A DNA stretch of 64,000 bases from a virus: positions 1 through 64,000 of IMG/VR virus record IMGVR_UViG_3300020125_000051, one strand, 5' to 3'. Shown here piece by piece: positions 5,988 to 24,341 of this stretch (the first letter of the stretch is position 1; the number at the start of each line of letters is the position of its first letter). Position numbers and translations under genes: made by a program. The notes below the pieces were generated by a model. That model saw nothing but the letters and a program-made list of their open reading frames with translations. It searched no databases and was not told where the DNA came from.

Positions 5988-6755
5988 TTACTCGTTGTCG
6001 TCTTCATTGTCCGCTTCGACCGGCTTGCCGGACTTCTTAGCCTTAGCTGCCTTTTCAGCTTCCTTGGCTGCCATGTCCGCATTGAACCGATCCGTTGCTT
6101 CCTGAATAGTCGTCGAAACCTGATCAACGTCTACGCTCTGCTCCTTAAGGAATCCCTGGTACTTCTCGATCAGCTTAGTAGTCTGTTCCTTACGACCAGT
6201 CCATAGCGCAAGCCGGGAACTAGTGTAAAGATCCTTGTACACCGCTGCGCCGAGAAGCGACAGGTTATCCTCTGCGGTGCGCGAGCTAGCGCGCTGGGCA
6301 CCGGTACCACGAGTAGACAAGCGCTCCTTACGGTTAGTCCACCATTCGGTAGCCTCATCACGCTTGATGTAAACTCGCGGTTCAGCATCATCCGGACCCT
6401 TCACAAGAATGTGCGGGATCCGCTCACGCTGAGCCTTGACAGTCTGGTAAACAGACTGCGGAACGACATAGTCATTCGCGTCAAGGTCCAGACCAGCGGT
6501 GATCTTAGCCTTCATTAGGGCCTGAGTCATGTGTGCAGCGAATTCAGTAACCGACATGGCGCCGTCCGGAACCTCTGCAACAGTCTCCACAGGAGCATCA
6601 ACAGTAGCGTCGCCGCTTCCGTCGGTTGCTGAATCCTGCGAATCACCACTAGTAGCTTCGGTGACGTTTTCGGTAGAAGTGTCGTCGGTTGCGGTAGAAG
6701 TGCCCGCAGTCTCGATACCCGCGAAAATGTCAACGTCAGTGTTACTCTGGGTCAT
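5988..6755 (-). CDS. Hypothetical protein with acidic N-terminus and charged C-terminus
   Basis: 255-aa ORF, GAGG RBS, more GC-rich than its neighbours, own promoter candidate. Confidence 0.75.
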   Translation of the reverse strand: MTQSNTDVDIFAGIETAGTSTATDDTSTENVTEATSGDSQDSATDGSGDATVDAPVETVAEVPDGAMSVTEFAAHMTQALMKAKITAGLDLDANDYVVPQSVYQTVKAQRERIPHILVKGPDDAEPRVYIKRDEATEWWTNRKERLSTRGTGAQRASSRTAEDNLSLLGAAVYKDLYTSSRLALWTGRKEQTTKLIEKYQGFLKEQSVDVDQVSTTIQEATDRFNADMAAKEAEKAAKAKKSGKPVEADNEDDNE

Positions 6756-6928: not shown

Positions 6929-7840
6929 CTAGAACAGGTGTCCTAGTCGGGTTAGGTGGTCTATGACCTTGATGCCCGGTTTAGCCGGAAAAATGATGTG
7001 TTTGGGTCGCCCGATGTTGCCATCACGGTAGGCACCCAAATTAATCAAACCATACTTAAATAAATAGTTTAGGTCGGTTCGGGCTTTTTGTCTCAAAAGT
7101 GCAGTTGGTACAAATCCTTTCAATACCTGCATTCCTGGTACATGTGAGACATTTAGCATTACAATGTTGAAGTCTTTATCCGGTTCTGCTACTTTTGCCC
7201 GAAAATCACTTAAACGTTGGGCACGCGGCACTAATGCATCTTGTTCACGTTGTGCTTTTTGTTCATTTTGTTCCTTTTGTTCCTTTTCTTGTGCTGTGTC
7301 ACTTGTGTCATATATTGGTGCTTTACCTTCTCTTACGCGGTTTTCGGCTGCATTTATGGCTTTTAGAATTACTTGCAGCATTTTGAGTGATCTGATTGGA
7401 ATAGTTGCTTTTACGAAGAAATCATCGGCGTCGTCCCAAGTGTTAGGATTGTATGCGATATCGTGCCCTGCGCGATCATTTATCTCTCTTATTACGTCTA
7501 TGGCCTGTTCTGCCTTGATTAGGCCATTGTTTACTAATTGTCCGGTTACTGTGCATAACGGTGGATCATAGTATTTGCTGCCGGCTAGGCAGCTTCTGTC
7601 GTGCATTTCCATTAAGTCTTGATTGTTCGAAAGTATCTTTTCGTAACTTACCTGTGGATCTGTGATGTTTAGTGTGTTGTCGTCCGATTTGGCCTGTTGG
7701 GCTAGTTTTAGGTCATAATAGCGTGATTCTAGCCATACGGCTAGCTCTAGGCTCATGTCGCCTAAGTGGTCCGCATATTCTCCGCCTTGTCCTATCTTAT
7801 GGGCGAAAAAGATGGTATCTCCGAGATTTACGATAGCCAT
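6929..7840 (-). CDS. Hypothetical protein (303 aa)
   Basis: Long ORF with AAGG RBS; no family recognised. Confidence 0.7.
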   Translation of the reverse strand: MAIVNLGDTIFFAHKIGQGGEYADHLGDMSLELAVWLESRYYDLKLAQQAKSDDNTLNITDPQVSYEKILSNNQDLMEMHDRSCLAGSKYYDPPLCTVTGQLVNNGLIKAEQAIDVIREINDRAGHDIAYNPNTWDDADDFFVKATIPIRSLKMLQVILKAINAAENRVREGKAPIYDTSDTAQEKEQKEQNEQKAQREQDALVPRAQRLSDFRAKVAEPDKDFNIVMLNVSHVPGMQVLKGFVPTALLRQKARTDLNYLFKYGLINLGAYRDGNIGRPKHIIFPAKPGIKVIDHLTRLGHLF

Positions 7841-8724
7841 TCCGTTACCTTACTCGTGATCTTATTGATAGACATGGGTCGATAGTACATATGTGCTATA
7901 AATCCAGGACAGTCAATATGATTACTGAGCGTTAGTGTGGATCTTGAAAATTGTTACGGAGAGTATTGGTAATTAACGCGCACATACGTGCTAAAAAAAT
8001 CTTTTGACGTGTCAACCGATGGCGCTTAAGGCTCTCGAATCGGACAGAAAACATCCGATCCCGATGCCGTAACCGACCCTAAGTGTACATCTGAAACGCG
8101 CCGACACGGTCACGGTTAGGTTGCAGTGCAGTTAAATAAAATATGAAATATGTTTTGTGATTTAGTGGTGGGTGGTTGGGGTATGAACAAATGCTTTTTT
8201 ACATATAGGGTCGATTAAGGTTTGCAAAAAGATTGCTTTAAAAACAAATGAAATATTTCAGAAGAAACAAATATCCGGTTTGGAAGGATTATTCGGGAAT
8301 TTCTTGCCAGGCATTCCGGGCCTTTTGACAACCTTAGAAAATAGGTATGATGTTCGTTGGTATATGAAAATTGGCATCGTATACGAGAGCAGATTGTGTG
8401 AAATGGGTTGATTGGGTGGGTTTGTCCAGGAAAATCGGACATGTCCGTTTTGGTAGGGTGTCGCGTTTGGAATGGGTAGGTGGTAAGGTCCTTCATTAGG
8501 TTCTTTACGGCAACTTGCCCAACTAATGCCCATCGTGCCCCACTATGCCCCCATATGTCCGTTTTGAAAAAATCTTGCGGGCTGTTTGTCCGACTGGATG
8601 GGAATTGTCCAATTTTTGAGGAGTTGGGTTGGTATGCCCAAATATGTCCGAATTATGACGACCATTCAAGATCATCTATGATCGATGATCTTGAATGATC
8701 GTTACAATTCGGCTTTGTGAGGTT

Positions 8725-9006
8725 CTAGGATGCTTTGTCCTGATTGTCCGATTTGCTGAGTTCACCCCATATGAAGTTATATCCAGCCAATCGGGTGGAT
8801 GTGGACGGACCTGTCCTAGAAAGTCGGGCTTCGGTAGCTTCGTCCGCTATCTGGCAGTCTGTACCTTTCCGGTAGATAAGTCCGACTGCGTTGGGTTTGC
8901 GAATTCCACCCTGCTTTGGGCCGAATGGGTGCTTTGTCCGTTTTCCCTTCTTTTTGGTGGTATAAGGCATTGGAGGTAGATTGGGTGAATTGTCTTCAAT
9001 GTCCAT
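8725..9006 (-). CDS. Basic hypothetical protein
   Basis: GGAG RBS, 93-aa ORF. Confidence 0.5.
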   Translation of the reverse strand: MDIEDNSPNLPPMPYTTKKKGKRTKHPFGPKQGGIRKPNAVGLIYRKGTDCQIADEATEARLSRTGPSTSTRLAGYNFIWGELSKSDNQDKAS

Positions 9007-9204
9007 TTCGTCTCCGTTGTCTTAGTTGATCTTGGTAGCTTGCGCGGCTCACCTGTGGTGGGTGGCTCACGCGGCCCGCTGTACGGGCGTCTGAGCGCTG
9101 TTGATCATGTTGCGGGTACCCTGACCAGGGTCCGCTTAGTTGATCATGTCCTAGACGCTCACAGCCAAGATCCGTACATGCGTGCGGATCATGACTGAAA
9201 CCGA

Positions 9205-9510
9205 CTAGCTGTAAAATCCTGAAATTCGGGTCATTAACCTGATTTTACTTTGATGTCCAGATGTGCTAGAACTGTACTTAACATCTGGAATGACCCATTC
9301 TGTCCCATTATACCATGCAATAGGCGTTTGGTACGAGTAGATCGTATAGACCACATTTGTCGCCTTTAGCTGATCTACTAGGAATGATGGCAAACGTCCG
9401 TATTGATACGGTTTGCACTGAGTGCCCCGTACATTACCAATATCGAACGCTTTGAAGTGATCGATACCAGCTTGCATGGTTTTGAGGGTAGTTCTGCCGT
9501 AAAGTGCCAT
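9205..9510 (-). CDS. Conserved-type phage early protein
   Basis: AGGAG RBS; YSYQTPIAW...YSSSTSGHQS motif. Confidence 0.7.
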   Translation of the reverse strand: MALYGRTTLKTMQAGIDHFKAFDIGNVRGTQCKPYQYGRLPSFLVDQLKATNVVYTIYSYQTPIAWYNGTEWVIPDVKYSSSTSGHQSKIRLMTRISGFYS

Positions 9511-9584
9511 TTTGTACTCCTAAATGTTGGTTTAGGTGGATTTAGTGCAAAACGGAGCAGATGTCCGTTTTGCACTAAATCCAT

Positions 9585-9803
9585 CTAACGTGGCGAGTCG
9601 TACGTATCGAACGACCAACCCCATTTGTCCATTTGTTCGTACTTTGCGTGTGTCCAGTTGATTATGGTAGTAACGTCATCGCTTGTGTCAATTAGGAAAA
9701 AATGGCCGGTTGGTGTTACAATGGCAATTTTGTTCATTTCCGTCTTGACTAGAACGATTGTCCCGTTGTCGGTGGTTGCTACCGCTTCATACCTGTTTGT
9801 CAC
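9585..9803 (-). CDS. Hypothetical protein
   Basis: AGGAG RBS, GTG start, bounded by family-2 hairpins. Confidence 0.65.
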   Translation of the reverse strand: MTNRYEAVATTDNGTIVLVKTEMNKIAIVTPTGHFFLIDTSDDVTTIINWTHAKYEQMDKWGWSFDTYDSPR

Positions 9804-9877
9804 CTTAGTCTCCTAAAGTAGTGAATTAGGTGGACATGCGGCAAAACGGCGCAATGTCCGTTTTGCCTGATCTCTAC

Positions 9878-10102
9878 CTAATTTCCATATGAAGGCATTT
9901 CGCCCCACGTGTCCTGAAGTGAAGGAGAATCGTAGTGAAAGTCGTCTATGTCCTCAAAGTACGATTCGTCCTCTGAGTCCCAATCGCCTTGAATGGTGTA
10001 TTTGTCTTCATAGTCCGATTCGAGAAAATCGTCCTCGTTCATGAAGTATGCTACTCCTATCATGGTTTGATCTGAAATGTCCGTTTCATCCGGTAGTAAC
10101 AT
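9878..10102 (-). CDS. Very acidic small protein
   Basis: Asp/Glu-rich with aromatic residues; AAGGA RBS. Confidence 0.65.
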   Translation of the reverse strand: MLLPDETDISDQTMIGVAYFMNEDDFLESDYEDKYTIQGDWDSEDESYFEDIDDFHYDSPSLQDTWGEMPSYGN

Positions 10103-10187
10103 TTTTATTCCTTTTGTTTGGATTTAGGTGGACATGGAGTGATTGGGATGATAACATCCCAATCAAACCAAATCTACCTAATCGTCA

Positions 10188-10328
10188 TCAATGAGACGGT
10201 TTGTCTTTTTCGTACAGCTTTGTGCTGTCAAAGCACAATTCGTCCTTTTCGTGCTGTCCATCACACATGGGACATGTGAGGCTATTGTACCTTTCTTCCT
10301 CATAATCCCGTTCCTGGTCATTGTCCAC
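10188..10328 (-). CDS. Small CxxC protein (46 aa, not in ORF track)
   Basis: GTG start; MDNDQERDYEEERYNSLTCPMCDGQHEKDELC... Confidence 0.5.
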   Translation of the reverse strand: MDNDQERDYEEERYNSLTCPMCDGQHEKDELCFDSTKLYEKDKPSH

Positions 10329-10582
10329 TGTTTGTCCCCTTCATTACGATCCTGCCCTTCCCTCCCCTTATGACACAATCTAGGTACAATTGCGCCAAAT
10401 CGTCCGATTGAACGGCTTTTGCCCAATTTTTGAGGAATCTATTAATCCTCTTGATTTGAGCAGGTCTGAGGGTAATGCGGTAGTTTCGCATGACTTGTCC
10501 TTATTTGGTTGGGGTTATCCACTTTTAGGTGGATATGAACCAGGATGTCCCTTTTGAGACATCCTGGAACATAAGCACCTAA

Positions 10583-11152
10583 TTAGGCGACATCTGCCAT
10601 TTCGTCCACGATTGCCGGCCCTATGAAGGTTGGTACGGGTTTGGTGCTAGTTGTCCGCTTTGCGGGAACTTTCGGCTTTGTGCTTTTTGCCGCTACTGTG
10701 GCCTTTGCCGGAGTTGTCCGTTTTGCCGGTGCTGTCTGCTTTGTGGTGATCTTGGCGGTTGTCACCTTTTCGATCAATATGCCCGCTGCGAGCAACATTG
10801 GGGCATCTGTGATAAACACGTAGATTACCGCAGTTGTCCAATGTTGTCCGTTTCGTGACACAAAGTCTACAATGTGCCAACCTGACCCATACATGGCGAA
10901 TGCGCAGATTAGACCAAATCCGCCGTATATGACCGTTTTCATCCACTTAGTCCTAGGCGAAAAGTAACTAATCAGATGAGACGATAGAAAAGCCACAACT
11001 GGTGGCAAAGCCGACACAACGATCGAATCCCGGTAAAGTGCACCAGAACGGACATTTGCATAAAGTGAAAATGTCCCACAAATGGCCAATGTCGCGGTTG
11101 CCCACAACTTCCCCTTTTGTGCCTTCGTGCGTGGAATGGACGGAATGCCCAT
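10583..11152 (-). CDS. DUF2637/SpdA-like membrane protein with Lys/Thr/Ala-rich tail
   Basis: Four hydrophobic segments, SLYANV...SALPPV motif, PAKR repeats. Confidence 0.6.
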   Translation of the reverse strand: MGIPSIPRTKAQKGKLWATATLAICGTFSLYANVRSGALYRDSIVVSALPPVVAFLSSHLISYFSPRTKWMKTVIYGGFGLICAFAMYGSGWHIVDFVSRNGQHWTTAVIYVFITDAPMLLAAGILIEKVTTAKITTKQTAPAKRTTPAKATVAAKSTKPKVPAKRTTSTKPVPTFIGPAIVDEMADVA

Positions 11153-11411
11153 TTTAGGCCCCTTTCGCTAGGGAAAGCACGGAATAGGCACAATGTCCTA
11201 TTCCGCACTTTTTCTAGCGAAAGTGCCAAGTATGTACCGATAGAGATGCATATGCCCCTAATTGTGGGCCTGCCGGCAATTGTCCGTTCTATCCCACTAG
11301 CCGGGCATATGCACCTTTAGCGGTACATACCTCCTATCTGTCACTGTTTAGGTCTCAATGTCCGATTCGCCCGCTTCTACCACTTCTGGAATGTTCCGGG
11401 CGACTATGTCC

Positions 11412-11454
11412 ATTATAGCATACCCGATTCGGACATATAGTGCGAATCGGGTAT
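11412..11454 (-). promoter_or_regulatory. Extended -10 promoter (TGCTATAAT) overlapping an inverted repeat
   Basis: Minus strand TATGCTATAAT; arms ATACCCGATTCG/CGAATCGGGTAT. Confidence 0.55.
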
Positions 11455-11536
11455 TTTAAACTGTCGGGTAGCTGACAGTCGACAATATCCGCATATGTCA
11501 GGTTATGTGAAGGTATGACCGATTTTGTCCGATTTG

Positions 11537-11830
11537 TTAGTCTTGCACTACAAAGTACTCAATTTCGCCGATTTCATCGTGAAAGGTCATATCTTCCCAT
11601 TGGTCCGGATCTTCCGAATAGGCCGGATCGTCCTTTATGACCGAAATGTCGTGCAGAACCTGCACAAAATGGTCATAGCAGGACGAATCCGCATCTACTG
11701 CCATCTTCTCGACATTGTCGTACAATTCGGCTACAGCCGCCACAAAAGTGGACGCACTGCCCAAATGCACGTCAATCGGGCCATCCTCGCAAAGGTAATC
11801 AGAATACCCGAAACTCCACGAATCCGACAT
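11537..11830 (-). CDS. Cassette A: acidic hypothetical protein
   Basis: AAGGAG RBS; inside IR pair. Confidence 0.75.
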   Translation of the reverse strand: MSDSWSFGYSDYLCEDGPIDVHLGSASTFVAAVAELYDNVEKMAVDADSSCYDHFVQVLHDISVIKDDPAYSEDPDQWEDMTFHDEIGEIEYFVVQD

Positions 11831-11914
11831 TTCGTCTCCTTTGTATCATTTCGGTCATACCCTCACAAAACCTGACATATCCGGATTTAGACTGCCTTGT
11901 CTCTTTTGTCTTAT

Positions 11915-12187
11915 TTAGTCGAGTTGCCCGATTTTGCAAAGATCGCGCACTCTGTACGGTCCTGTCCCATCTGGATCGATTTCGTCATGCTTTGGGCAGA
12001 TTCGCCACCATTCGACGGTAATGTCCTTTTCGCTCCAATTTGGTGGATTGAGGTTTCCCTCCACATCCGTCACCTTTGTCACGATTCCGACGCATTGTCC
12101 GTCTTCGCACTTTTCGCACCCATCGTCGTATTCGTGGTCTTCGCACGGTGCGTCCCACTTTACGATGGTATCGACCTTAATGTCCAT
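11915..12187 (-). CDS. Cassette B: Cys-containing small protein, paralog of C
   Basis: Start moved to MDIKVD after AGGAG. Confidence 0.75.
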   Translation of the reverse strand: MDIKVDTIVKWDAPCEDHEYDDGCEKCEDGQCVGIVTKVTDVEGNLNPPNWSEKDITVEWWRICPKHDEIDPDGTGPYRVRDLCKIGQLD

Positions 12188-12284
12188 TTTGTCTCCTAAT
12201 GTCCGATTTGGGAGACAAGGCAGTTTAGACCCGGACATGTCTGTCATATCCGGATTTAGGGTGGCATGTCCCTTTTAGGTTAGT

Positions 12285-12557
12285 TTAGTAACATTGTCCG
12301 ATGTCCCACAAAGAGTCCGAACTGTACGTTCCGACCGTTGTGAGGCTTTCCAGGTGATATGGGCAGATTTGCACCCATCGCACCTTTACGTCAAATTTGG
12401 GCTCATTGTCGATAAAGCCCAGCATTGTCAGACTTAGCACTATTCCGATGCATTGGTCCGTTTCGTCCTCTAAAAAGCAGGTTCTTCCTGTTTCGTGCAT
12501 TCCGCTACTTTTAGGAGGATTGTACGGTTGGACCAGGGTTCCTACGTTTAGTCCCAT
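12285..12557 (-). CDS. Cassette C: small protein, paralog of B
   Basis: Start moved to MGLNVG after AAGGAG. Confidence 0.75.
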   Translation of the reverse strand: MGLNVGTLVQPYNPPKSSGMHETGRTCFLEDETDQCIGIVLSLTMLGFIDNEPKFDVKVRWVQICPYHLESLTTVGTYSSDSLWDIGQCY

Positions 12558-12648
12558 TTTGTCTCCTTTTGCGAGACATGCCACCTTAGATCCGGATATG
12601 TCCGAATGTAACCGTTTTAGCCCCACATGTCTGGTTTTGCCTGATTTG

Positions 12649-12873
12649 TTACATCTTGCGAGTAATGACCGGCTCGTCCTCTATGATCTCTACGTCCGTT
12701 TCAGCCATTACGTCCTCGATGCCCTGATTGTCGCGAATGTCCTCAGTGAGGTCTTCGTCCGAAATTTCCTTTTCGGGAAATCCGTCCCATCCGTCCATGT
12801 AGTCGTTAATTTCCATTTCGTACCGGAACGTGATGGTTCGCTCGATAACAACCTTATCGCCAGGCTTGTACAT
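12649..12873 (-). CDS. Cassette D: acidic protein, paralog of H
   Basis: AAGGAG RBS; inside IR pair. Confidence 0.75.
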   Translation of the reverse strand: MYKPGDKVVIERTITFRYEMEINDYMDGWDGFPEKEISDEDLTEDIRDNQGIEDVMAETDVEIIEDEPVITRKM

Positions 12874-12999
12874 GTTTGTCTCCTTTGTCCAATTTGGCCA
12901 GACATGTGGAGTTAGAACGGTTACATCCGGATATGAGCGCTTACGTCCCTTACTCTCTGGAATATCCAGATTTATGGAGCTATGTCTGGGTTGTCCGTT

Positions 13000-13215
13000 T
13001 TAGTCCTTTGCGACGTATCCGCGCCGAACGCGCAGAATGCTAGTTAATGCCCAGAATGTAGTGGTTTGGTCGTCTTCTGACATTTCGTCCGATTTGACGA
13101 TTTCGTCCCATACGTCCTGATACGTCCACGTTGACAGCATTCGTGACTGAATGTCCTGAAATACTGCCCTTTGTACCTTTGGGGTGGCTCGCCATAGTTC
13201 GGGTAGTTTGTCCAT
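13000..13215 (-). CDS. Cassette E: hypothetical protein
   Basis: Start moved to MDKLPE after AGGAG. Confidence 0.7.
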   Translation of the reverse strand: MDKLPELWRATPKVQRAVFQDIQSRMLSTWTYQDVWDEIVKSDEMSEDDQTTTFWALTSILRVRRGYVAKD

Positions 13216-13464
13216 TTTTACCCACTCCTGTGGTGTTTGCCCAGACATAGCCCCATAGACCCGGATATGCCCCCTAGATCCCTCCCCTCCCCATTTGTCT
13301 GAATTAGGAGAAAAATCCAGAAATGTCCGACTCATTTTGAAATGTCCAATTTTTGAGGAAGCTTACGCTTACGCTCTCCTATATCGGGTTTTATCCCGAT
13401 ATATCCGGATATGGACTAGTTTGTCCGGATTTAAGTGGATATGTCCGTTTTGTCTAACTATGTA

Positions 13465-13629
13465 CTATTTGCGGTACCATGCCCCATTATGGTAGTCACA
13501 GTCCGAAATGTACGAATCTTCCGTTATGGCATGACATACCGGATTTGTCGCTATTGCGACGTCTCGTCCGATTAGGACGGCTATGACCACTAAAAGCACA
13601 AATATCATGCTTAGCAACCATTTGACCAT
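13465..13629 (-). CDS. Cassette F: 54-aa single-pass membrane/secreted protein (not in ORF track)
   Basis: MVKWLLSMIFVLLVVIAVLIGRDVAIATNPVCHAITEDSYISDCDYHNGAWYRK; AAGGAG RBS. Confidence 0.7.
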   Translation of the reverse strand: MVKWLLSMIFVLLVVIAVLIGRDVAIATNPVCHAITEDSYISDCDYHNGAWYRK

Positions 13630-13746
13630 TTTTGCTCCTTATGTCCGATTTGTCGGTTTGTGCACCGCGTGGGTAAAACGGACATATCCACATAAACCCG
13701 GACAAACTATGACTTACTACCCTTTGTCGGACATGTCCGATTTGGA

Positions 13747-14007
13747 CTAGCTAACCCGAATTGCGCCGCTATGGGTGATTTCTACCGTTGCGTACCATTT
13801 GCGGTTTGTGTACGGGTTTGGCCCGGTTACGGAGTATTTGACCCCTTTCTCCATTATGTCCAAAGTGCCAGGAATTGTGGCGTTAAACTCCGATGTGCCG
13901 TAAAAATACACGTTTGTCGGATTTGCCGCAATTGCGTCCTTTAGAGCCTTTTTGGTCGGTATGTCCGATTTGTCGGCATTGTACTTTGCGCCCACATTTA
14001 CGTACAT
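13747..14007 (-). CDS. Cassette G: hypothetical phage protein
   Basis: AAGGAG RBS; PTKKALK...VTGPNPYTNRKWYA. Confidence 0.75.
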   Translation of the reverse strand: MYVNVGAKYNADKSDIPTKKALKDAIAANPTNVYFYGTSEFNATIPGTLDIMEKGVKYSVTGPNPYTNRKWYATVEITHSGAIRVS

Positions 14008-14111
14008 TTGTACTCCTTTGTCCGATTTGTGTAGATTTGTCGGACATGCCCGATAAGGGGTAGTAAGTCTGACATATGCTAGTATAGGAGTGTATGTCCG
14101 GTTTGCCTGAT

Positions 14112-14384
14112 TTAGGCTATTTCAACCGAGATGACCGTATCGTCCGCTATGTCCATTGTGTCGGTATAGCCCGAACTGACCGAAATGTCGTTGTTACGGC
14201 ATTCGTCCAGAATGAGATTTTTGACCGAAATGGACTCTTTGTCCGTTCCGTCCAAAATCTCCGCAATGTCCACTTCGTACGCTATTGTCACGATTCGGGT
14301 GATTGTTACCGTTTGTCCGGCTTTGAGCATTACGTCCAAATTGGCCTTATTGCCCTCTTTGTACTCAATGTCCCAAATGTCCAT
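14112..14384 (-). CDS. Cassette H: acidic protein, paralog of D
   Basis: Start moved to MDIWDI after AAGGAGG. Confidence 0.75.
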   Translation of the reverse strand: MDIWDIEYKEGNKANLDVMLKAGQTVTITRIVTIAYEVDIAEILDGTDKESISVKNLILDECRNNDISVSSGYTDTMDIADDTVISVEIA

Positions 14385-14495
14385 TTTGTCCTCCTTCGTC
14401 CGATTTTGGATAAATGGACCGGACATACACCCTTATACTAGCATATGTCATGGTATATCCGGATTTAGGAGCCTATGTCCGTTTTGCACGATCTG

Positions 14496-14801
14496 TCAGA
14501 TAAGCGTTAATTCAGTGGCTCTGACCGTTTTGCCCTCTATGGGCATTAGGTCACCTTCGTCATCTATGCGGCTTATGCGGCATAGGGTCGTTATGACCGA
14601 TTTGCCGTCATTGTCCGCTTCTTCCTGGTATGTCACAGTTGAGAGGATTACGTACTCTTCCTCCCGGTATGTGACGTATGCCCCGATTTGTGGGATTATG
14701 ACTACCAATGTGCTCATTTGCGAAGGTTGGTAGTTTTCGTCCCATTCGCCGGGAATGTCCAGATTTCCGATGATTTTCTGGTTTTCGTCCTGAATGTACA
14801 C
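14496..14801 (-). CDS. Cassette I: hypothetical protein
   Basis: GTG start after AAGGAGG. Confidence 0.7.
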   Translation of the reverse strand: MYIQDENQKIIGNLDIPGEWDENYQPSQMSTLVVIIPQIGAYVTYREEEYVILSTVTYQEEADNDGKSVITTLCRISRIDDEGDLMPIEGKTVRATELTLI

Positions 14802-14896
14802 TACATCCTCCTTTGTCCGATTTTGGCCGGACATAGGCTCTTAGATCCGGATATACCCAGGAAAATCCAGGTTTAGGGTGGCTTGTCCGTTTTGCC

Positions 14897-15127
14897 CTAG
14901 TTAGCTAGGACTCGGGGGATTCGCCCCATCCATGCCGCAAAACCACGAAATGTCATGACATGAGTGGGTTCGTCCGCTATGTCCAGCATGTCCGTTGTCT
15001 GCTCGTTTGGGAAGAATGTCTGGTCTGCCTCGTTTGTCTCGTTTACCACGAAATGTCCGATTTGTGGCACTCCGCACACATTGTCATAGTATAGCACCTG
15101 ATGTACGGAATAACGTGGCTTGTCCAT
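14897..15127 (-). CDS. Cassette J: hypothetical protein
   Basis: Start moved to MDKPRY after AAGGAG. Confidence 0.7.
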   Translation of the reverse strand: MDKPRYSVHQVLYYDNVCGVPQIGHFVVNETNEADQTFFPNEQTTDMLDIADEPTHVMTFRGFAAWMGRIPRVLAN

Positions 15128-15235
15128 TTTTGTCTCCTTTGTCCGATTTTTCCGAAATGTCGGACAAGCCACCCTAAACCTGGATTTTCCTGATTTAGCT
15201 CTTATGTCTCCTTTGTCCGGCATGTCCGTTTTACC

Positions 15236-15397
15236 CTACTTAGTCGCGTAAATCCTGATTTGACAGGATTCGCACCACATGACCGTTTCGCCGAAAATAG
15301 CCCATTCGAGAGCTTCTTCCGGTTTGTCCGGTTTTGCCGGGACCGTCCGATGTGAGCAGTTTGTGCAGTAATCGTACGATTCGGAATACCTTGGCAT
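15236..15397 (-). CDS. Cassette K: small zinc-ribbon protein
   Basis: CTNC...CESC; start MPRYSE after AAGGAGG. Confidence 0.7.
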   Translation of the reverse strand: MPRYSESYDYCTNCSHRTVPAKPDKPEEALEWAIFGETVMWCESCQIRIYATK

Positions 15398-16582
15398 AGT
15401 ATGCCCTCCTTTGTCTCGTATGTCCGATTTTTCGGACATGCCGGATAAGGGAGACATAAGCGCTTCTGTCCGGTTTTCGTCACTTTTGAGTTATTAAGTA
15501 CCGATTTGCACCGCTTCGCCTGTATCCCACCATTTTCCCGACTTGTCGGGATTGTCTAGGATGTCGGTTTCCGCCCGGTCTGGCTCCCTCTAGCCTATCA
15601 TGTCCAGGTCTGTACCGAAATGTCCGGATTTATGCCCATATAATACCCCAAAAAATTCCGACATTTCCGGACATGTCGGAAATGCCCGAAAAAAATGTCG
15701 GCCTTTTCGTGTTAAATCCCCATAAATCGGACAAATCGGACATATCGGGATATAATACCGGTACAAATCGGGGCAAATCGGGCACCCCTTAAAATATGAC
15801 AAATCCGGACATTTCACCATTTAGTGGTAGACTCGCGGCGAAACGGGCGGACATTTCGGGGCATTCGCGACAAAACGGACAAATTGAATCCTCATATATC
15901 CGGATATAGTAGGGCAAATTCGGAGAGTCTAGACTATTCGGACATTTGCCACATATCGGAATGATCAACAGTCCGAAATGTCCTTTTGTAATTAATGATA
16001 TTTCGTGATATGTCCGATATGTACCAAATGTCTGAATGACAAGAATCCGACCCATGCGCATACGTGCATGTTGATCAAGACAAATTGGGCATATGGTGCA
16101 TAACGGACACCCTGGGAGGGTCCTGACATATACCCACAAAACGGACATACCACACATATACACACATATGTGTACATATGTGGATAAAACGGACACGGGT
16201 GGGGTGATTTATCCACATATGATATGGTATGTACACATATGATACGTTATGTTTCATATGTCCGTTTTGTCCTAGTCTGCCCTAGTTTGTCATGATTTGG
16301 AACCCGGACAAAGCCACCCAAAAGCATACAAAACGGACAAAGTTAACTATATTATTTTAAATCATCATAAAATGGACATTCCGGTAGGTCCAACGTAGAT
16401 CGGTGAAGGTTTTTAGTGTTAGTAAATTTACATGGTAATAATCAAGAAATCAAGATATTAGTCCTGAAAATTTTACGAGGATTATCAGAGGTGTTTGTAA
16501 GTTGACAAGATCAAAAAGTTTCTCTTGTCCTCGCTATGGCTAAGGCGTACTCTGAGTTTGGAGTCTATTTGGAGGTGAACGC

Positions 16583-18903: not shown

Positions 18904-20331
18904 ATGACTTCTCCGGATGTAGCACCAACTCTTACTAGGGTTGTCTCTAAGGAGAAGTACTTTGAAAAAATTGGTTACCAGCCGCACCCACGGCAAAAAT
19001 TGTTCCATGATTCAAAAGCACGATTTAAGATTCCTGTCTGTGGGCGGCGGTTCGGTAAAACCGTGATGGGTGCTCGTGAAGCCGAACCTACTCTCATGAT
19101 ACCCAACAAAAGAGTATGGATTGTCGGACCAACTTATGACCTTGGTGAGAAGGAATTCCGGGTTATTTGGAACGACATGATTATTAAGCTAGGGCTCGGG
19201 CGCGAGAAAGAAGTTAAAAAAGCGTTTAATAAGCGTTCTGGCGATATGTATATTGAGTTTCCCTGGGGAACTAGAATAGAAGTACGCTCTGCGGATCGCC
19301 CAGAAACACTTGTTGGTGATGCTTTAGACTATGTCATCATGGCAGAAGCTGCAAAACATACAAAGGAAACTTGGGATCGGTTTATTCGTCCAGCCTTAGC
19401 CGACCGCAGAGGGTCAGCCACGTTTAGTACAACGCCTGAAGGTCAGAACTGGATTCATGATCTGTGGCAAATGGGGCGCAACCCACTATTTGAAGAATAT
19501 GAGTCTTGGCGCTTCCCAGCTTGGGAAAACACATATGTCTATCCAGGTGGCCGGAATGATCCTGAGATAATATCTCAGGAATTAACAATGCCATCTGAGT
19601 GGTTCATGCAAGAAATTGCGGCTGATTTCACTTCATTCATGGGTAAAATCTACTCAGAATGGGATGAACAAGTACATGTGCAGCCACATAAATATAATCC
19701 AGCTTGGAAAAACTACATTGCGTTTGACTGGGGTTTTGTTAATCCAATGGCCGCAGTAGAATTCCAAGTTGACCCGATGGACCGAGTGCATGTGTGGCGA
19801 CTTCATTACAAATCTCATATTCGGTTAGAGACCTTCCTGTGGGAAATGAAAGAGCGAGCGCAGCCCGATGGTTATAAAATTGATCTTTGCTTCGGCGACG
19901 CTGCTGATCCTGAGGCTGTTGCCACAGTGTGTGAAAAGTTTGCTCCTTGCATAGCTGATCCTAAGTCTAAGGATAACTGGCGAGAAGGCATAGATTTAGT
20001 AAAAGGTTTTTTGAAGACCCAGACCGTAGGTGAGGCCGATGAATTCGGGACGCCTGTGGATGAGCCATGGCTCACCGTAGACAACACCTGCGGCGACCTG
20101 ATTAGAGAATTCAACAACTATCGGGCTGCTGCACCTACAACTGGCAAACCGAGGAATCCTAGAGAAGATGCACAGAAGTATGATGATCACGCTTTAGATG
20201 CTTTGCGTTACGCTTTGATGCACATTTTCAAGCTAGGTTGGACCCAAAGTCTACATGACTTCATTGATGTAAGCGAAATGCACCAAGTTCCATCCACAGG
20301 TTACTTCACATCTAAGATGAGTTTTTCATGA
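18904..20331 (+). CDS. terL: Terminase large subunit
   Basis: Walker A GRRFGKT, STTPEG motif, RNase H-like AFDWG and DDHALDALRY. Confidence 0.95.
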   Translation: MTSPDVAPTLTRVVSKEKYFEKIGYQPHPRQKLFHDSKARFKIPVCGRRFGKTVMGAREAEPTLMIPNKRVWIVGPTYDLGEKEFRVIWNDMIIKLGLGREKEVKKAFNKRSGDMYIEFPWGTRIEVRSADRPETLVGDALDYVIMAEAAKHTKETWDRFIRPALADRRGSATFSTTPEGQNWIHDLWQMGRNPLFEEYESWRFPAWENTYVYPGGRNDPEIISQELTMPSEWFMQEIAADFTSFMGKIYSEWDEQVHVQPHKYNPAWKNYIAFDWGFVNPMAAVEFQVDPMDRVHVWRLHYKSHIRLETFLWEMKERAQPDGYKIDLCFGDAADPEAVATVCEKFAPCIADPKSKDNWREGIDLVKGFLKTQTVGEADEFGTPVDEPWLTVDNTCGDLIREFNNYRAAAPTTGKPRNPREDAQKYDDHALDALRYALMHIFKLGWTQSLHDFIDVSEMHQVPSTGYFTSKMSFS

Positions 20332-20541
20332 AACAGACTATTTGGCAACGTTTATCTTATTGGCCGATGTTTGGTTGGAACCACTATGTTATTCGCAGAT
20401 GCACATGTCACAAACACTTCTGGCAAAGTTGGAGTGTTTAATGATAAATGCGATTTATGGATTCATGTGTGGTGGTACTTGCGTTGCGCTTATTGTAGCC
20501 GCAATCGTCTATTACTATGCGTATAAGATGTGGAATAACTC

Positions 20542-20898
20542 ATGACTACTTGTCCAAGAAGAATGCAAGAGTGGGGACCATGGGAGAAGGCTGAGAACCT
20601 AGACCATTGGCGTAAAGATAAGACTTGTTCCTTCTGTGGGAGTCTAAATCCAGATATATTTTTGGATTTACTTGCTAAAGGAAGAGTAGCAGTTACACCT
20701 ACTGATAAAAATTATAAAGCTTACGTAGAAGGTCTAGGTGTATTCAGAAAATTTTATTTTCAACATTTCGATTTTGAGCAGCAAGATAAATTTCTCGAGA
20801 TTTATAATACTGATCCTAGACCATTTAGAATGTCTGATCCTGGATATTTTTATGTATTACCGTTTTTTGCTCATAGAAGGGAGGTAGGTCATGAGTGA
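20542..20898 (+). CDS. Hypothetical phage protein
   Basis: CSFCGSL...TDKNYKAY...KFYFQH. Confidence 0.6.
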   Translation: MTTCPRRMQEWGPWEKAENLDHWRKDKTCSFCGSLNPDIFLDLLAKGRVAVTPTDKNYKAYVEGLGVFRKFYFQHFDFEQQDKFLEIYNTDPRPFRMSDPGYFYVLPFFAHRREVGHE

Positions 20899-22465
20899 TA
20901 ATTCGGAATATCTATCCATAATTGCTGAGTTAGAACAGAATGCTGAGACTCGAGAAATTGCAAATACTGCACAATTAACCAAACAAATTACTCTTAACGA
21001 AGCGTTGAATAGTTATGATTTAGTTAAGGCCGTGCATGATCCAGTTAATGGATCTTATGTAGTGATGGCCGAGCGTAACCCTAAATTAGACATAAATACG
21101 GCATTCAAGGAAATGGGTTACGTATCTCCATCTCCATTTACTTCTTGGACTCGTGACGAGCGTGTTCCGGAACTTAGAGATCAAACAGGTATTCGTACTT
21201 ACTATAACATGAAGCGAGCCGACGGCATTATTCGTGGCGCGTTAAGATTACTTAAGACTCCTGTTATGGCAGCTAGATGGTTCATTGAACCAGCTAGTGA
21301 TAGTACCTTAGACAAAAGCATTGCGGATTTCGTAGAACGAAACCTGTTTGAAGAGTTAAATGCACCTTGGTATCGTGTTCTTGAAGATGCGCTATTAATG
21401 TGTGAATATGGTTACATGCCGTTAGAAAAGGTATATGGACTAAACTCTGATGGTAAAATTGTACTAAAGAAACTAGCTCCACGACACCCACTTGATATTA
21501 TGCAATGGGAATATGACACAACAGGTGGGCCAAATGGTATCGTTATGGAACCTACCCAGGCGAACAACTTTGAGTCTATTTTTGTTCCTATTGAGAAGCT
21601 AGTTGTCTTTGTATTAGAGCAAGAAGCTGGTGACATGCGTGGAATTTCAATTCTACGATCTGCCTACAAGCATTACTACTACAAAGATACACTCTACAAA
21701 ATTGATGCTATCCAAAAGGAAAGACACGGAATTGGTGTTCCAATCATCAAAATCCCGCTTGGTGCCTCTGATAAGGACCGAGCACTTGCTGATGATTTGG
21801 GAAGAAACTTGCGTACCAATGAGCGTGCCCACATATCTTTGCCAATGAACTGGGAAGTGATGTTTGCTAAGTTAGAAGGTCAGCCAGTCGACTGCTTACC
21901 TTCAATAGCACATCACAATGATCAGATTATGCAAAATATTTTAGCAAACTTCTACAAAGATCCAAGTGCTAAAGAAGATTCAATGAACATGTTCTACAAG
22001 GGAACTCGTTACATTGCATCTACTCTAGCTGAAACTTTTAATCGTCATGTCATCAAACAACTTGTAGATTTCAATTACAATCGAGGAAAATACCCAATTC
22101 TTCGTGTTCGTAGAATTGGTGAGAACGAAGACCTACGTACATGGTCGTTTGCATTCCGTAACCTAGTTGGCGCTAACGCAATCTTCCCTGATGATCCACT
22201 AGAGGACTTCTTAAGAACAGAACTCGACCTACCACCAGCCGACAAGAAAACAGCACGTACGCCATTTGATCCTAGACAGCAACGTGCACAAGAACCTGGT
22301 CCTCCTGGTACTGTTGGTAGTCTTCCAACTCAAACATCACCTGGAAATACAACGAATCCAGCAAATAACACTGGATTACCTCATGTTGGTTTGCCTAGAC
22401 AAAAGGCACAACCACCAGTTAAACCTCCACAGAAAAACGCTGGATCTGATAGATCAGGAGGATAG
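20891..22465 (+). CDS. Portal protein (DUF935/Mu gp29-like)
   Basis: YGYMPLEKVY, GISILRSAY, ERHGIGVP; follows TerL. Confidence 0.9.
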   Translation: MSDNSEYLSIIAELEQNAETREIANTAQLTKQITLNEALNSYDLVKAVHDPVNGSYVVMAERNPKLDINTAFKEMGYVSPSPFTSWTRDERVPELRDQTGIRTYYNMKRADGIIRGALRLLKTPVMAARWFIEPASDSTLDKSIADFVERNLFEELNAPWYRVLEDALLMCEYGYMPLEKVYGLNSDGKIVLKKLAPRHPLDIMQWEYDTTGGPNGIVMEPTQANNFESIFVPIEKLVVFVLEQEAGDMRGISILRSAYKHYYYKDTLYKIDAIQKERHGIGVPIIKIPLGASDKDRALADDLGRNLRTNERAHISLPMNWEVMFAKLEGQPVDCLPSIAHHNDQIMQNILANFYKDPSAKEDSMNMFYKGTRYIASTLAETFNRHVIKQLVDFNYNRGKYPILRVRRIGENEDLRTWSFAFRNLVGANAIFPDDPLEDFLRTELDLPPADKKTARTPFDPRQQRAQEPGPPGTVGSLPTQTSPGNTTNPANNTGLPHVGLPRQKAQPPVKPPQKNAGSDRSGG

Positions 22466-22468
22466 CTA

Positions 22469-22738
22469 ATGCGTGCAGATCCACCTACTTCAGTTAGACA
22501 ACGCAGATTATCTGAATCTAGGCCAGATATTGCGACACATCGTCAGCGGACTGTCATAGAGCTGTCTGACCGAATGGTGAAAGGTTTTAAAAAGAACGCG
22601 CAAAGGATTGCGGCTAAGCAAGGAATGCCTTACGATCGGGCTGCGGCCATACTAGCTGCCGGTGCCCGGCGTGCGTCATCGGCCGCAAAACGTAAAAATC
22701 CTGCTCTTAAGAAGGTTAAGGGCAAAGCTAAATCATAG
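22469..22738 (+). CDS. Small basic protein
   Basis: AAILAAGARRASSAAKRKNPALKKVKGK. Confidence 0.6.
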   Translation: MRADPPTSVRQRRLSESRPDIATHRQRTVIELSDRMVKGFKKNAQRIAAKQGMPYDRAAAILAAGARRASSAAKRKNPALKKVKGKAKS

Positions 22739-22758
22739 GTTTGTCGGAAGGAGGGAAA

Positions 22759-23889
22759 ATGGGAACTAGTTCTAGCTTTCTTGTTGATGCTTTTACATTG
22801 ACTTTTGAAGAGTCTGATGGTAAGCAAAGTTCGTGGGTACACGCACTTGGGCTTGGTTCATTCAGGCACCCAACGTACGGAACCATCGATCTAACTACTG
22901 ATCGTATTAAGAACTTTGCAGATAGCGTCAAAAACAAGATTCGTGGAACAGTTGAGCCTAGCATCAACTACGTGCATGACAACAACAATGTCGCCGCTGG
23001 TTGGGTTAAGGACGCCGAGAGTCGTTCCGACGGCCTGTGGGTTTTTGTTGAGTGGGTCAGCGATGCTGCTAAAGCCATTTTAGAAAAGAAATGGCGTTAC
23101 TTCTCATCTGAGTTTACTGATGAGTGGGAAGACCCACAGGGTACTAAGCACAAGGATGTATTCATTGGTGGCGCGCTAACTAACCGTCCATTCATGAAGA
23201 ACCTTGTTCCGGTCAACTTGTCGGAAGACACTGTTGATATGGCTCTTGATTTAGTATCACTAATTAGCGGTGTGGACAAGGATTCTTTGAAGGGGGGTAA
23301 CGGTATGGAACTTAGCGATGCTGATGTTCAGAAGATAGTTGAAGGATTAGCCACAAAACTAGCTCCGACAACTACTCCACCAGTTCCGCCAGTACCGCAG
23401 GTTAGCCTTATGGATATTCCTGAGCTAAAGGCATTAGCAGAAGAAAACCCAATGGTTAAGCTTTTACTTGACCAGGTTGAGAAGCAGAATGCTGATCTTG
23501 CAAAGGGTGCAACTTCGCTTAAGGAAGCTGAAATTGCCCGCAAACTTACTGAGTTTGACCGGAGCAAGATTGTTCTAACGCCTGTTGCCAAGGAACTTAC
23601 TGAAAAACTGGCAATGGCTATTCCAGAGGCACTTTCAGATGACTTCTGGAAGCTTCTTACTGAAATGAAGCGTGGATCTTCATTCCTAGTAGAGCTTGGC
23701 GAGCGCACTGGCGCAACCGTAAACTACGGAACGCCAAAGTCTTATGTTAAGCAGTTCGACGAGCTAGCTGCGTCTCTAAAGTCAGAACACAAGCTATCTG
23801 ATGCAGATTCGTACGAGCGTGCAGCCTCACAGAACCCGGCGCTATACGCTAAGTACCGTGCCGAGCTAACGAACAGTGAGGTGAAATAA
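22759..23889 (+). CDS. Capsid maturation protease/scaffold (Mu I-like)
   Basis: YVH, AAGWV, RYFSSEF, GGALTNRPF; helical C-terminal scaffold region. Confidence 0.88.
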   Translation: MGTSSSFLVDAFTLTFEESDGKQSSWVHALGLGSFRHPTYGTIDLTTDRIKNFADSVKNKIRGTVEPSINYVHDNNNVAAGWVKDAESRSDGLWVFVEWVSDAAKAILEKKWRYFSSEFTDEWEDPQGTKHKDVFIGGALTNRPFMKNLVPVNLSEDTVDMALDLVSLISGVDKDSLKGGNGMELSDADVQKIVEGLATKLAPTTTPPVPPVPQVSLMDIPELKALAEENPMVKLLLDQVEKQNADLAKGATSLKEAEIARKLTEFDRSKIVLTPVAKELTEKLAMAIPEALSDDFWKLLTEMKRGSSFLVELGERTGATVNYGTPKSYVKQFDELAASLKSEHKLSDADSYERAASQNPALYAKYRAELTNSEVK

Positions 23890-24320
23890 TGGCTGGCTCT
23901 GGCGCTAATTTCGTTCTTGACAAGGCATTTAACTTACTATCTACTTACAACTCATCTGCTGCCGCAGGTGCACTTGCTAAGAGATTAGTTAAGTTTGCTG
24001 CTGGTGGTACAGTTGACCTTAACGTTGCTTCTAACACTCGTTCCATTGGTATCCTTATGGAGAACGTGGATGCGGTTAAGATTGCAACTGGTAAGGTTAT
24101 GGCCGATGTGCGTATGATTGGTATTGGTACCGTCAACTGCACAACTGCTGCTTCTGTGGTGCTTGGAAGCGTTCTTATGTCATCCACTGTTGGTGGTGTA
24201 CTACTTGCAGCTACCTCTGCCAACATCCCAATGGGATTAGCAGTTGGTATCACTGGTACTCTTGCCGATGGTAACGACATTCAGGTGCTATTCCTCGCTG
24301 GTCTACCGGCACTACCGTAA
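23889..24320 (+). CDS. Capsid decoration/cement protein
   Basis: Small Gly/Ala-rich beta protein between protease and capsid genes. Confidence 0.7.
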   Translation: MAGSGANFVLDKAFNLLSTYNSSAAAGALAKRLVKFAAGGTVDLNVASNTRSIGILMENVDAVKIATGKVMADVRMIGIGTVNCTTAASVVLGSVLMSSTVGGVLLAATSANIPMGLAVGITGTLADGNDIQVLFLAGLPALP

Positions 24321-24341
24321 TCTGAAGGGAGGGAAATTTAA

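Follow-up and report, generated by a model that had tools for sequence, protein, structure and literature searches.

Bases 1-64000 of an 81,007-bp soil virus record (IMG/VR IMGVR_UViG_3300020125_000051) were analysed, and this stretch, which is present in 24 soil runs, is called the window here. Between about 8.4 and 16.4 kb, the short word TGTCC(G) and its complement recur through genes and non-coding DNA alike. We found that a degenerate, polar unit of 9 to 10 bp underlies these words, which, with their adjoining A/T tracts, are its strongest copies. Some 765 such units tile the minus strand from 8430 to 15650 and pass through 17 small early genes. The resulting lattice is polar, grows denser toward the early promoter, is conserved among diverged relatives and does not depend on the protein sequences encoded within it. 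Its unit resembles the repeat bound by the winged-helix protein BldC. We put the probability at roughly 0.55 that the array is a filament track for a BldC/Xis-type protein, of the phage or of its host, which would silence or shield the first-expressed DNA.

Counted on both strands of the whole window, TGTCCG occurs 86 times, compared with 19.7 ± 4.3 in dinucleotide-preserving shuffles, and TGTCC occurs 201 times, compared with 110 ± 9.8. The enrichment described in the original prediction, which was made from the sequence before this analysis, thus holds after control for composition. The stretch from 8436 to 16339 contains 69 of the 86 hexamers, and the octamer TGTCCGTT is present in 17 copies within the block and in none outside it. 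The predicted limits were also confirmed: the block opens with a palindromic double site, CGGACATGTCCG, at the promoter-distal lattice edge (8436-8447; a second copy lies at 13728-13739) and closes with a final site at 16334-16339, ahead of a TerS-like open reading frame (ORF) that begins at 16583. Alignment of the sites gave the consensus (A/T)TGTCCG(A/T/G)TTT(G), in which T-rich positions recur on either flank at intervals of about 10 bases; the A/T tract said to accompany the motif is real. Searches of the literature turned up only primers for the bare motif, and nothing relevant on periodicity in phage early regions.

The words had been said to recur on both strands. Both strands are indeed used, but in a strongly polar manner. 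From 8400 to 15650, TGTCC favours the plus strand by 85:15, and all 15 exceptions are arms of intergenic hairpins; from 15650 to 16400, the preference flips to the other strand (13:4). Within the 17 ORFs, there are 44 sense words and 1 antisense word. Since the early genes lie on the minus strand, the words read GGACA in the mRNA sense. The 69 exact hexamers comprise 18 pairs closing RNA stems (see below), 3 in local hairpins, 16 in ORFs, 14 in the region where the polarity flips, 6 within the 30 nt that precede a start codon and 12 in other leaders and spacers.

Tiling of the domain by dynamic programming yielded units of 9 nt (395), 10 nt (263), 11 nt (65) and 8 nt (42). Their mean length was 9.46 bp overall, 9.42 bp in ORFs and 9.51 bp outside them; the tiling showed no 19-bp super-period of the kind that units of 9 and 10 nt in regular turn would give. 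On the plus strand, the unit reads Y-G-n-C-C-n-n-W-T, and the sense-strand majority consensus of the 765 units is AAATCGGAC. A periodicity in A/T versus G/C (W/S) of 9.4-9.6 bp extends across 8.5-15.5 kb, where Welch power is 10-16 versus ~1 elsewhere, and the autocorrelation peaks at 9, 18-19, 28 and 37. Calculated in 500-bp windows, the power was 10-38 in every window of 8.5-15.5 kb and exceeded 10 in none elsewhere in the 81 kb. The distances between GTC(C/G) sites are quantised (9, 10, 18, 19, 27, 28, 36, 45 and 54-58, empty between), and this persists over at least six periods, so that the spacing periodicity proposed as a check on the original prediction is present. Phase coherence is local, extending over ~200-300 bp. 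In windows of 9-10 nt, GC content has a variance of 0.59 of the binomial value in the domain versus 0.9 elsewhere. Tandem Repeats Finder found no more in 9 kb than 13 scraps, each of 1.9-3.1 copies, and the head-to-tail copies at least ~70% alike that mark a classical tandem repeat or iteron array were not found. This result points to a lattice of degenerate units, which differs from the usual kind of repeat array. The mixture of 9s and 10s and the non-integer repeat point to the geometry of the double helix and not to the counting of nucleotides on single-stranded RNA.

The lattice is written through the coding sequences, where it takes the form [nnG][GAC or GnC][Ann] with +1 slips. All 17 ORFs have a spectral peak at 9.05-9.65 bp and not at 9.0 bp. 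Upon synonymous-codon shuffling, the mean peak power of the ORFs fell from 15.4 to 5.9 ± 0.4, the count of GGACA from 44 to 19.5 ± 3.2 and that of CGGACA from 15 to 4.0 ± 1.8. This bears out the claim that the motif enters genes, as do the 16 exact hexamers in ORFs. The Asp codon GAC makes up 73% in the domain versus 33% in late genes. A bias on the encoded proteins had been proposed as well, and 5 of the 17 ORFs begin MD(K/I), because ATG-GAC-A is itself a unit.

The block consists of the promoter-proximal section of a leftward gene arm together with the gene-free region that separates it from a divergent, rightward arm. The leftward arm carries genes from ~15.4 kb via the record ends to 42 kb; the rightward arm runs from 16.58 kb to 42 kb and includes the TerS-like gene, TerL, a Mu/P23-45-type portal and others. 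The 17 small minus-strand ORFs in the block have strong ribosome sites of the AAGGAG type. Alignment placed an extended -10 promoter of the early operon, TGaTAGGCT, at 15592-15600 on the minus strand; the pattern TGnTAnnnT is common to most of the 7 aligned relatives. Between this promoter and the first early gene lies a leader (15398-15585, minus strand), the best-conserved nucleotide stretch of the domain, with 75-84% identity in 6 relatives.

Beyond the promoter, the polarity reverses at a dyad, TTCCGACAT-N8-ATGTCGGAA (15656-15681), which on the minus strand forms a hairpin followed by T6. In the gene-free "flip" region (15651-16345, plus strand), CGGACA occurs 12 times on the plus strand versus 2 times on the other, as discrete, helically phased sites of the form (A/C)AAA(A/T)CGGACA(T/A). 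The corresponding regions of relatives are 0.3-1.9 kb long and likewise non-coding. In 10 of them, the spacing of GGACA gave a Fourier peak at 9.25-9.5, with gaps of 11-16, 21-24 and 31-33. As the same ~9.4-bp phasing is found in this non-coding DNA, the period is not an artefact of three-codon repeats.

Relatives with a TerL at least 75% identical (L009, L012-15, L017-19, L030 and L054, and the complete genomes G001 and G002) all carry one lattice domain in the same place. They share the word, the period, the flip of polarity and a density gradient that rises to the promoter; the rise toward the dyad point is seen in three complete genomes. Nucleotide identity among these relatives is patchy (~70%), and their gene content is mosaic. 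The lattice is unique within the 81-kb genome and kept in at least 10 diverged relatives. The clade of G003, whose TerL is 55% identical, has a 2-kb version, and no lattice was found in clades with TerL at 57-60% identity. In one gene family, the two in-domain copies have a spectral power of 28 and 23.5, and the G003 copy, which lies outside the lattice, has 4.3; in a second family, the values are 15.3 versus 7.2. Orthologues with 41-55% protein identity carry an equally strong lattice. The loss of power in a homologue outside the lattice shows that the lattice tracks position and not protein.

A candidate for the protein that binds the lattice is encoded just beyond the array (5988-6755, minus strand). 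This 255-aa protein has an acidic disordered N-terminus, a predicted winged helix (residues ~65-150) and two long C-terminal helices. All 4 complete genomes with a lattice carry its gene; in G005 and 9 other relatives that lack a lattice, it was not found. The family comprises ~70 sequence clusters; a profile search of viral contigs recovered G001 and G002 only, and the protein has no sequence match in Pfam, PHROG, NCBIfam or the PDB. The model of residues 60-155 has a pLDDT of 93.6. When these residues were compared with known structures by VIA, nearly all of the top ~25-30 matches were MerR/Xis/TerS-N/BldC winged helices (Z 4.3-6.7, all Z <8; root-mean-square deviation (rmsd) 1.9-3.1 Å), and the matches covered whole small domains. 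They included 6hn7 (Z 6.7), Pukovnik Xis (Z 5.8, rmsd 2.3 Å, 53 of 54 residues), BldC (Z 5.4, rmsd 2.1 Å, 52 of 52 residues), RdfS (Z 5.0) and P2 Cox (Z 4.4). Foldseek with the same residues returned nothing significant (E ≥0.19). The protein is therefore predicted from its model to carry a winged helix of the MerR/Xis/BldC type. A match of the whole 255-aa model to GapR (Z 6.2) was tied with generic coiled coils and was not used.

These structure matches led us to the repeat recognised by BldC. Every protomer of BldC binds a 9-bp direct repeat whose consensus is AATTxxxxC, modelled as AATTCGGAC; the wing enters a narrowed A/T minor groove, and Arg30 reads a C-G pair (PMC5859096). The optimised site is TGTCCGAATTGTCCGAATTG (PMC5859096). 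Binding is head-to-tail and directional, and the filament in the crystal consists of 11 protomers on eleven 9-bp sites; within the filament, the DNA loses a third of its length, and BldC also accepts degenerate units when good ones adjoin them, through indirect readout (PMC5859096). In the BldC register, the lattice consensus AAATCGGAC and the BldC repeat AATTCGGAC are nearly letter-identical. The most conserved base of the lattice, a C (77%), corresponds to the position read by Arg30, and 409 of the 765 units have the form W(at least 3 of 4)-N4-C. On its sense strand, the domain has 23 matches of at least 8/9, versus 2 on the opposite strand; this amounts to 3.2 per kb, compared with 0.09 per kb elsewhere in the genome. 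The array thus has both the unit of a BldC array (an A/T-rich 4-mer, four bases and a C-G pair) and its arrangement, direct repeats about one unit, or one DNA turn, apart. Among filament-forming relatives of BldC, Xis, RdfS and P2 Cox also oligomerise head-to-tail on DNA into compacting filaments (PMC11963761), and the Xis/BldC-like Gp36 of phage D29 binds direct repeats, some of them within a gene, and represses downstream phage genes (PMC12266134).

The original prediction had suggested a dense array of protein-binding sites that marks a functional domain, and this is the best-supported reading of a lattice that is phased, polar and matched in its consensus by the BldC repeat. Nothing in the analysis spoke for DNA modification, the other role proposed for the sites. 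That a protein binds, which protein this is and what its binding does, we infer as follows. The block would be a double-stranded-DNA track for a winged-helix protein of the BldC/Xis family, either the clade-specific 255-aa protein of the phage or a BldC orthologue of the host. With its wing in the A/T minor groove, which is narrowed, each protomer would read the C-G pair four bp on, and protomers would add head-to-tail, one per 9-10 bp. Nucleation would start at the strong sites that surround the early promoter, with subsequent spreading over the weaker units within genes. The continuous coat would compact the first-expressed DNA and either shut the early operon, by steric or roadblock repression in an early-to-middle switch, or shield it. 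The 255-aa protein as the binder would fit a delayed-early shut-off of the early operon. The geometry of a repeat below 10.5 bp and the filaments of RdfS and Cox suggest that the coil may be left-handed; opposed to this, the BldC paper reports positive writhe (PMC5859096).

Several observations weigh against a filament of this kind. The mean period of the lattice is 9.46 bp, compared with exact 9-bp units in the BldC crystals. The strict co-orientation with transcription would also fit a reading at the level of RNA, or one coupled to transcription, and some of the words demonstrably act in RNA stems. Steric repression by BldC is expected to be independent of filament direction (PMC5859096), so that repression alone leaves the polarity unexplained. 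The match to the BldC unit was found post hoc among many motifs considered. The fold predicted for the 255-aa protein is supported by many matches that agree with one another but are each weak (Z 4.4-6.7; Foldseek E ≥0.19), and its phyletic pattern is common to other clade-specific genes such as Ro60. Genes of the HTH_17, MerR and excisionase families were not detectable by sequence in G000-G002. Finally, the hints as to the host conflict, and the GC content of 42% is unlike that of Streptomyces.

A stronger form of the proposal, which we hold only tentatively and consider rather improbable, is that the 17 genes have been recoded, synonymously and non-synonymously, so that their double-stranded DNA forms a 7-kb polar track for a BldC/Xis-type filament. 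If this is true, the virus would specify a "chromatin domain" that is written through its coding sequence. Discussion of overlapping codes usually concerns sites that stand alone; in this phage, a polar, helically phased docking code appears to run through 17 genes and visibly reshapes their codon choice, amino-acid content and N-termini. Confirmation of the filament track as such would extend the winged-helix filament mechanism, based on 2-6 repeats in BldC, Xis, Cox and Gp36, to the coating of an operon on the kilobase scale, and would give phages a histone-like means to switch off or shield their first-expressed DNA. If the filament is formed by a BldC-like developmental regulator of the host, early phage expression could be coupled to the developmental state of the host; alternatively, the array could titrate the regulator away from the host chromosome. 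The signature, a combination of Fourier analysis and a position weight matrix, can be used to screen other genomes.

An alternative that we think unlikely is a code read at the level of RNA. The words would then serve as closing pairs of stems, as an operator ahead of the Shine-Dalgarno sequence (AAAUCGGACAAAGGAG) and as sites within ORFs to which a protein that recognises RNA, or an RNA of complementary sequence, would bind; transcription of the flip region would yield a sponge or an antisense regulator, and the periodicity would be secondary. The sense bias of 44:1 in the ORFs speaks for it, as does the use of 18 of the 69 hexamers to close stems and the position of 6 of the 69 within 30 nt before start codons. 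The stems in question are large. Eleven genes (11487-15464) are each enclosed by complementary arms of 30-37 nt (84-100%), all on the minus strand: stem 1 at 15197-15464 (arms 15197-15228 / 15433-15464, 91% complementary), stem 2 at 14858-15192 (32-nt arms, 100%), stem 3 at 14451-14858, stem 4 at 14070-14450 (33 nt, 94%), stem 5 at 13711-14069 (30 nt, 90%), stem 6 at 13417-13709 (35 nt, 94%), stem 7 at 12959-13271 (32 nt, 84%), stem 8 at 12598-12934 (37 nt, 86%), stem 9 at 12240-12605 (31 nt, 87%), stem 10 at 11874-12241 (30 nt, 87%) and stem 11 at 11487-11886 (36 nt, 92%). Relatives have the same pattern of stems with cores that differ and are specific to the cassette. In 38 stems from 4 phages, 1064 of 1182 positions are Watson-Crick paired and the core is unique to each cassette, so that long flanking arms occur together with a cassette-specific, covarying core, as in processing signals of the RNase III type.

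The stems fold in mRNA, as indicated by their wobble pairs. Two A.C mismatches are conserved, 13 and 16 nt from the TGTCCG end of the stem; at the other wobble positions, there are 36 G.U pairs in the sense RNA versus ~4 in the antisense RNA. The idea that the two conserved non-Watson-Crick positions are a sign of the antisense strand was rejected after this full count of wobbles. In the filament reading, too, a subset of the words thus has an additional role in RNA, where UGUCCG/CGGACA form the pairs that close the 11 stems next to the loop. This accounts for about one quarter of the exact words and leaves the rest of them, and the lattice, unexplained. Two further points favour the RNA-level code: the phage carries Ro60, and the ORF RNAs are more structured than shuffled controls (z -2.6), probably because UCGG units pair mutually. 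The latter result also led us to reject the notion that these RNAs are held free of structure. A reader of single-stranded RNA, however, would not predict a repeat of 9.46 that is kept through frame slips and non-coding DNA, and the reversed sites upstream of the early promoter lie beyond any established transcript. A search of Rfam yielded tRNAs only, and none of 5 genomes contained a run of at least 5 alternating GGY/NN pentamers, the mark of VIPR guide-RNA arrays.

The promoter-distal genes have instead local hairpins of 25-32 bp in between. Those at 9532-9588 (of the TTAGGTGGA...TCCACCTAA type), 9824-9883, 10124-10181 and 10525-10582 are intergenic; a 32-bp hairpin follows the last early gene (8648-8712), and another lies in the leader of gene 12 (11162-11223), all on the minus strand. 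The hairpins in 9532-10582 are all bounded by TTAGGTGGA...TC(C/T)ACCTAA and form a second class, distinct from the gene-enclosing stems. A block of small early genes that is read from one end, long intergenic stems and mosaic content are also features of the class I early region of T7, with its RNase III sites, and of the PeSL cassettes of T4. There, the stems stand between genes, whereas here 11 of them enclose whole genes and no promoter per gene was seen; nor do T7 and T4 PeSL have a helical DNA lattice, unlike this phage.

We consider it quite improbable that the words protect a DNA end. According to this explanation, they would act in a polar fashion, like Chi or uptake signals, facing a physical genome end and guarding the DNA that enters first, and would be read by a host exonuclease or helicase or by the entry motor. 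A polar motif whose orientation diverges from the dyad at 15656-15681, and whose density rises toward it in three genomes, would suit such a role. The block also adjoins the terminase genes, and phage genome ends commonly lie near these. The helical lattice and the fillers between strong sites would remain unexplained, and the early promoter would sit only ~60 bp from such an end. The record ends overlap by 127 bp at a distance of 8.4 kb from the block; we take this to be the overlap of a circular assembly, which carries no information on virion ends.

There is only a slim chance that the lattice reflects pure DNA mechanics, with phased A/T tracts and TG steps that confer intrinsic coiling or anisotropic flexibility and thereby aid the packaging of the last-packed DNA, ejection or the absorption of torsional stress during early transcription. 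The strong W/S phasing and the reduced variance of GC content (0.59 of binomial versus 0.9) are consistent with it. Curvature, however, requires neither polarity (44:1) nor a GGAC core in which one C is 77% conserved; phase coherence extends over only ~200-300 bp, and a repeat of 9.46 bp is far from the ~10.5 bp needed for planar bending.

Equally doubtful is a non-adaptive origin, in which a 9-10-nt intergenic repeat expanded or spread by gene conversion and the lattice is its decaying relic. Most ORFs of the domain lack a known family and gene content is mosaic, as this would have it, and conserved frames in intergenic modules would favour recombination. A relic would not explain why the period within ORFs is 9.4-9.6 and not 9.0, why the lattice is equally strong in orthologues of 41-55% identity and missing from a homologue outside the domain, or why Tandem Repeats Finder detects scraps only and the position with the highest conservation is one at which a protein contact is known. 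It is scarcely credible that the words form an array of promoters, or of T4 PeSL-type promoter/terminator cassettes before each gene, with GGACA as a -35-like element: (C/T)GGACA does resemble TTGACA, the intergenic modules are repeated and there is one CGGACA-17-TATAAT match (15728-15756), but sigma-70-type sites are as frequent as in shuffles (16 versus 16.0 ± 4.6), the aligned intergenic modules contain no conserved -10 and no promoter consensus of the T4 PeSL kind, and the lattice within ORFs would be left unexplained.

Returning to the BldC/Xis-type filament track, the nearest known systems are BldC arrays, excisionase-type filaments and D29 Gp36. BldC of Streptomyces likewise uses a 9-bp polar unit of an A/T 4-mer and a C-G pair, and the cooperative head-to-tail binding is a property of BldC (PMC5859096). 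Its known sites (whiI, smeA-ssfA) contain 2-4 repeats in promoters, whereas here ~765 units extend over 7.2 kb and 17 genes; its repeat is 9 bp, compared with a lattice mean of 9.46 bp, and a small BldC gene is not detectable in the phage. The Xis proteins of lambda and Pukovnik, RdfS and P2 Cox belong to the fold family predicted for the 255-aa protein, and some excisionase-type filament proteins also regulate the transcription of phage genes (PMC11963761). Their sites comprise 3-6 units at attP or promoters, whereas no integrase or att site is evident here, and the 255-aa protein adds an acidic tail and long C-terminal helices that excisionase-type proteins are missing. D29 Gp36 is similar in being a phage-encoded, Xis/BldC-like protein with some of its direct repeats within a gene; it differs in that its 3-4 repeats are GC-rich, lie 15-19 nt apart at two places and form no close-packed lattice (PMC12266134).

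Other systems are more remote. The stoperators of cluster A mycobacteriophages (L5 gp71) share with the lattice asymmetric, repeated sites oriented with transcription, and their orientation matters for the blocking of elongation (PMC9283540). They number just over 20 13-bp sites genome-wide, mostly in short intergenic positions and with no helical lattice, and are bound by the monomeric immunity repressor of a temperate phage (PMC9283540). The genome-wide dispersal of ~20-30 sites over promoters and short intergenic gaps that characterises stoperators was not found here: the sites fall within 8 kb of the 81 kb and are close-packed through ORFs. Protein p6 of phi29, an organiser of the viral genome, forms a periodic, sequence-dependent coat over kilobases, nucleates near one region and has a role in the early-late switch; it differs in its period of 12/24 bp, reads bendability and not a polar motif, has another fold and nucleates at the ends (PMC10899789). 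None of the systems compared comes near ~765 units through 17 genes, a scale that has not been described before.

Numbered from the promoter, the 17 early genes, all on the minus strand, are gene 1 (15236-15397, 53 aa, a Shine-Dalgarno-led ORF), gene 2 (14897-15127, 76 aa, MDK start), gene 3 (14496-14801, 101 aa), gene 4 (14112-14384, 90 aa, MDI start), which has the clearest three-codon lattice, [nnG][GAC][Ann], and gene 5 (13747-14007, 86 aa), whose homologue in G003 lies beyond the lattice of that phage and is without periodicity. They are followed by gene 6 (13465-13629, 54 aa, hydrophobic), gene 7 (13000-13215, 71 aa, MDK start), gene 8 (12649-12873, 74 aa), gene 9 (12285-12557, 90 aa), gene 10 (11915-12187, 90 aa, MDI start) and gene 11 (11537-11830, 97 aa). 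Gene 12 (10583-11152, 189 aa) is membrane-like by its hydrophobic sequence; it has 47% and 44% identity in G001 and G002, respectively, and every copy is periodic. Gene 13 (10318-10491, 57 aa), gene 14 (9878-10102, 74 aa, acidic), gene 15 (9585-9803, 72 aa) and gene 16 (9205-9510, 101 aa), a match to phrog_32689 (E 6.6e-12), precede gene 17 (8725-9006, 93 aa, basic, MDI start), which is the most conserved gene of the domain (67% and 60% identity in G001 and G002). No cultured phage gave a blastn match to the block, and the relatives of the capsid protein among cultured phages are all at no more than 32% identity.

Past the distal edge of the lattice, the first gene encodes a 303-aa protein (6929-7840, minus strand). 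Its synteny is kept in G001, G002, L014 and L054, and an Atlas search with the protein returned nothing. The 885 bp between this gene and the last early gene (7841-8724) contain no convincing gene, and the lattice ends within them, at ~8430. A TTGACA-15-TATGAT match on the plus strand (8325-8352) points antisense into the early operon. A 115-aa ORF in G003 (G003:C1:18514-18672) matches HTH_17 and MerR_1 (E 2e-9 and 3.7e-6); G000-G002 are without such a protein.

The flip region contains a 135-bp imperfect palindrome (16136-16270) closed by ACAAAACGGACA / TGTCCGTTTTGT. At its centre are inverted exact DnaA-box 9-mers, TGTGGATAA and TTATCCACA (16179-16187 and 16209-16217); the palindrome is also rich in CACATATG, and L019 carries one DnaA box. 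This element could be an origin or could titrate DnaA. A conserved non-coding block at 16335-16440 (plus strand), with 73-78% identity in 3 relatives and the form GTTAACTATATTA...TAAAAT-GGACATT, is by its sequence a candidate for the rightward promoter of the late operon. Just upstream of the TerS-like gene, 2-3 copies resembling GTGTTAG(T)AAA(T)TGACA (16413-16510) are kept in relatives; these could be terminase sites, cosB- or pac-like, or sites for an activator. The flip regions of relatives carry 1-2 perfect CRP-type palindromes, TGTGA-N6-TCACA, after GTTGATC or CCGGAC (L013:7723-7850, L014:7672-7830, L018:6420-6540, L019:7283-7310, L030:5247-5370); such palindromes are absent from this window.

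The evidence on the host is mixed. Bins of metagenome-assembled genomes conflict (Allocoleopsis, Chitinophagaceae, Acidimicrobiaceae and Sumerlaeota), and the avoidance of restriction sites gave no clue (GGNCC is not avoided). The GC content of third codon positions is 55% in the early-domain genes (8725-15397) versus 32% in late genes (18904-37468), and codons ending in T account for 18% in the domain versus 40% in late genes. This suggests that early genes are tuned to the GC-richer tRNA pool of the host and late genes to the many tRNAs of the phage. GC-richer early codons and many phage tRNAs would fit a high-GC host, although the host hints conflict.

The Ro60 gene is complete and lies outside the window (L094:6238-7827; genome 70238-71827), with TROVE and Ro60 vWA domains (E 5e-59). 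G001-G003 also carry the gene and G005 lacks it, a distribution that matches that of lattice and stems. A 289-aa protein (59436-60305) has a weak match to DGQHR (DndB-like, ParB-fold; E 0.0024, under the curated cut-off) and is probably the "ParB-like protein" named in the original prediction. Domains of the DGQHR type go along with DNA-modification systems. The window also encodes a family A DNA polymerase with an N-terminal domain of the uracil-DNA-glycosylase superfamily (46096-48426), a ThyX thymidylate synthase (45078-45782) and a Fic/DOC protein (61494-61982).

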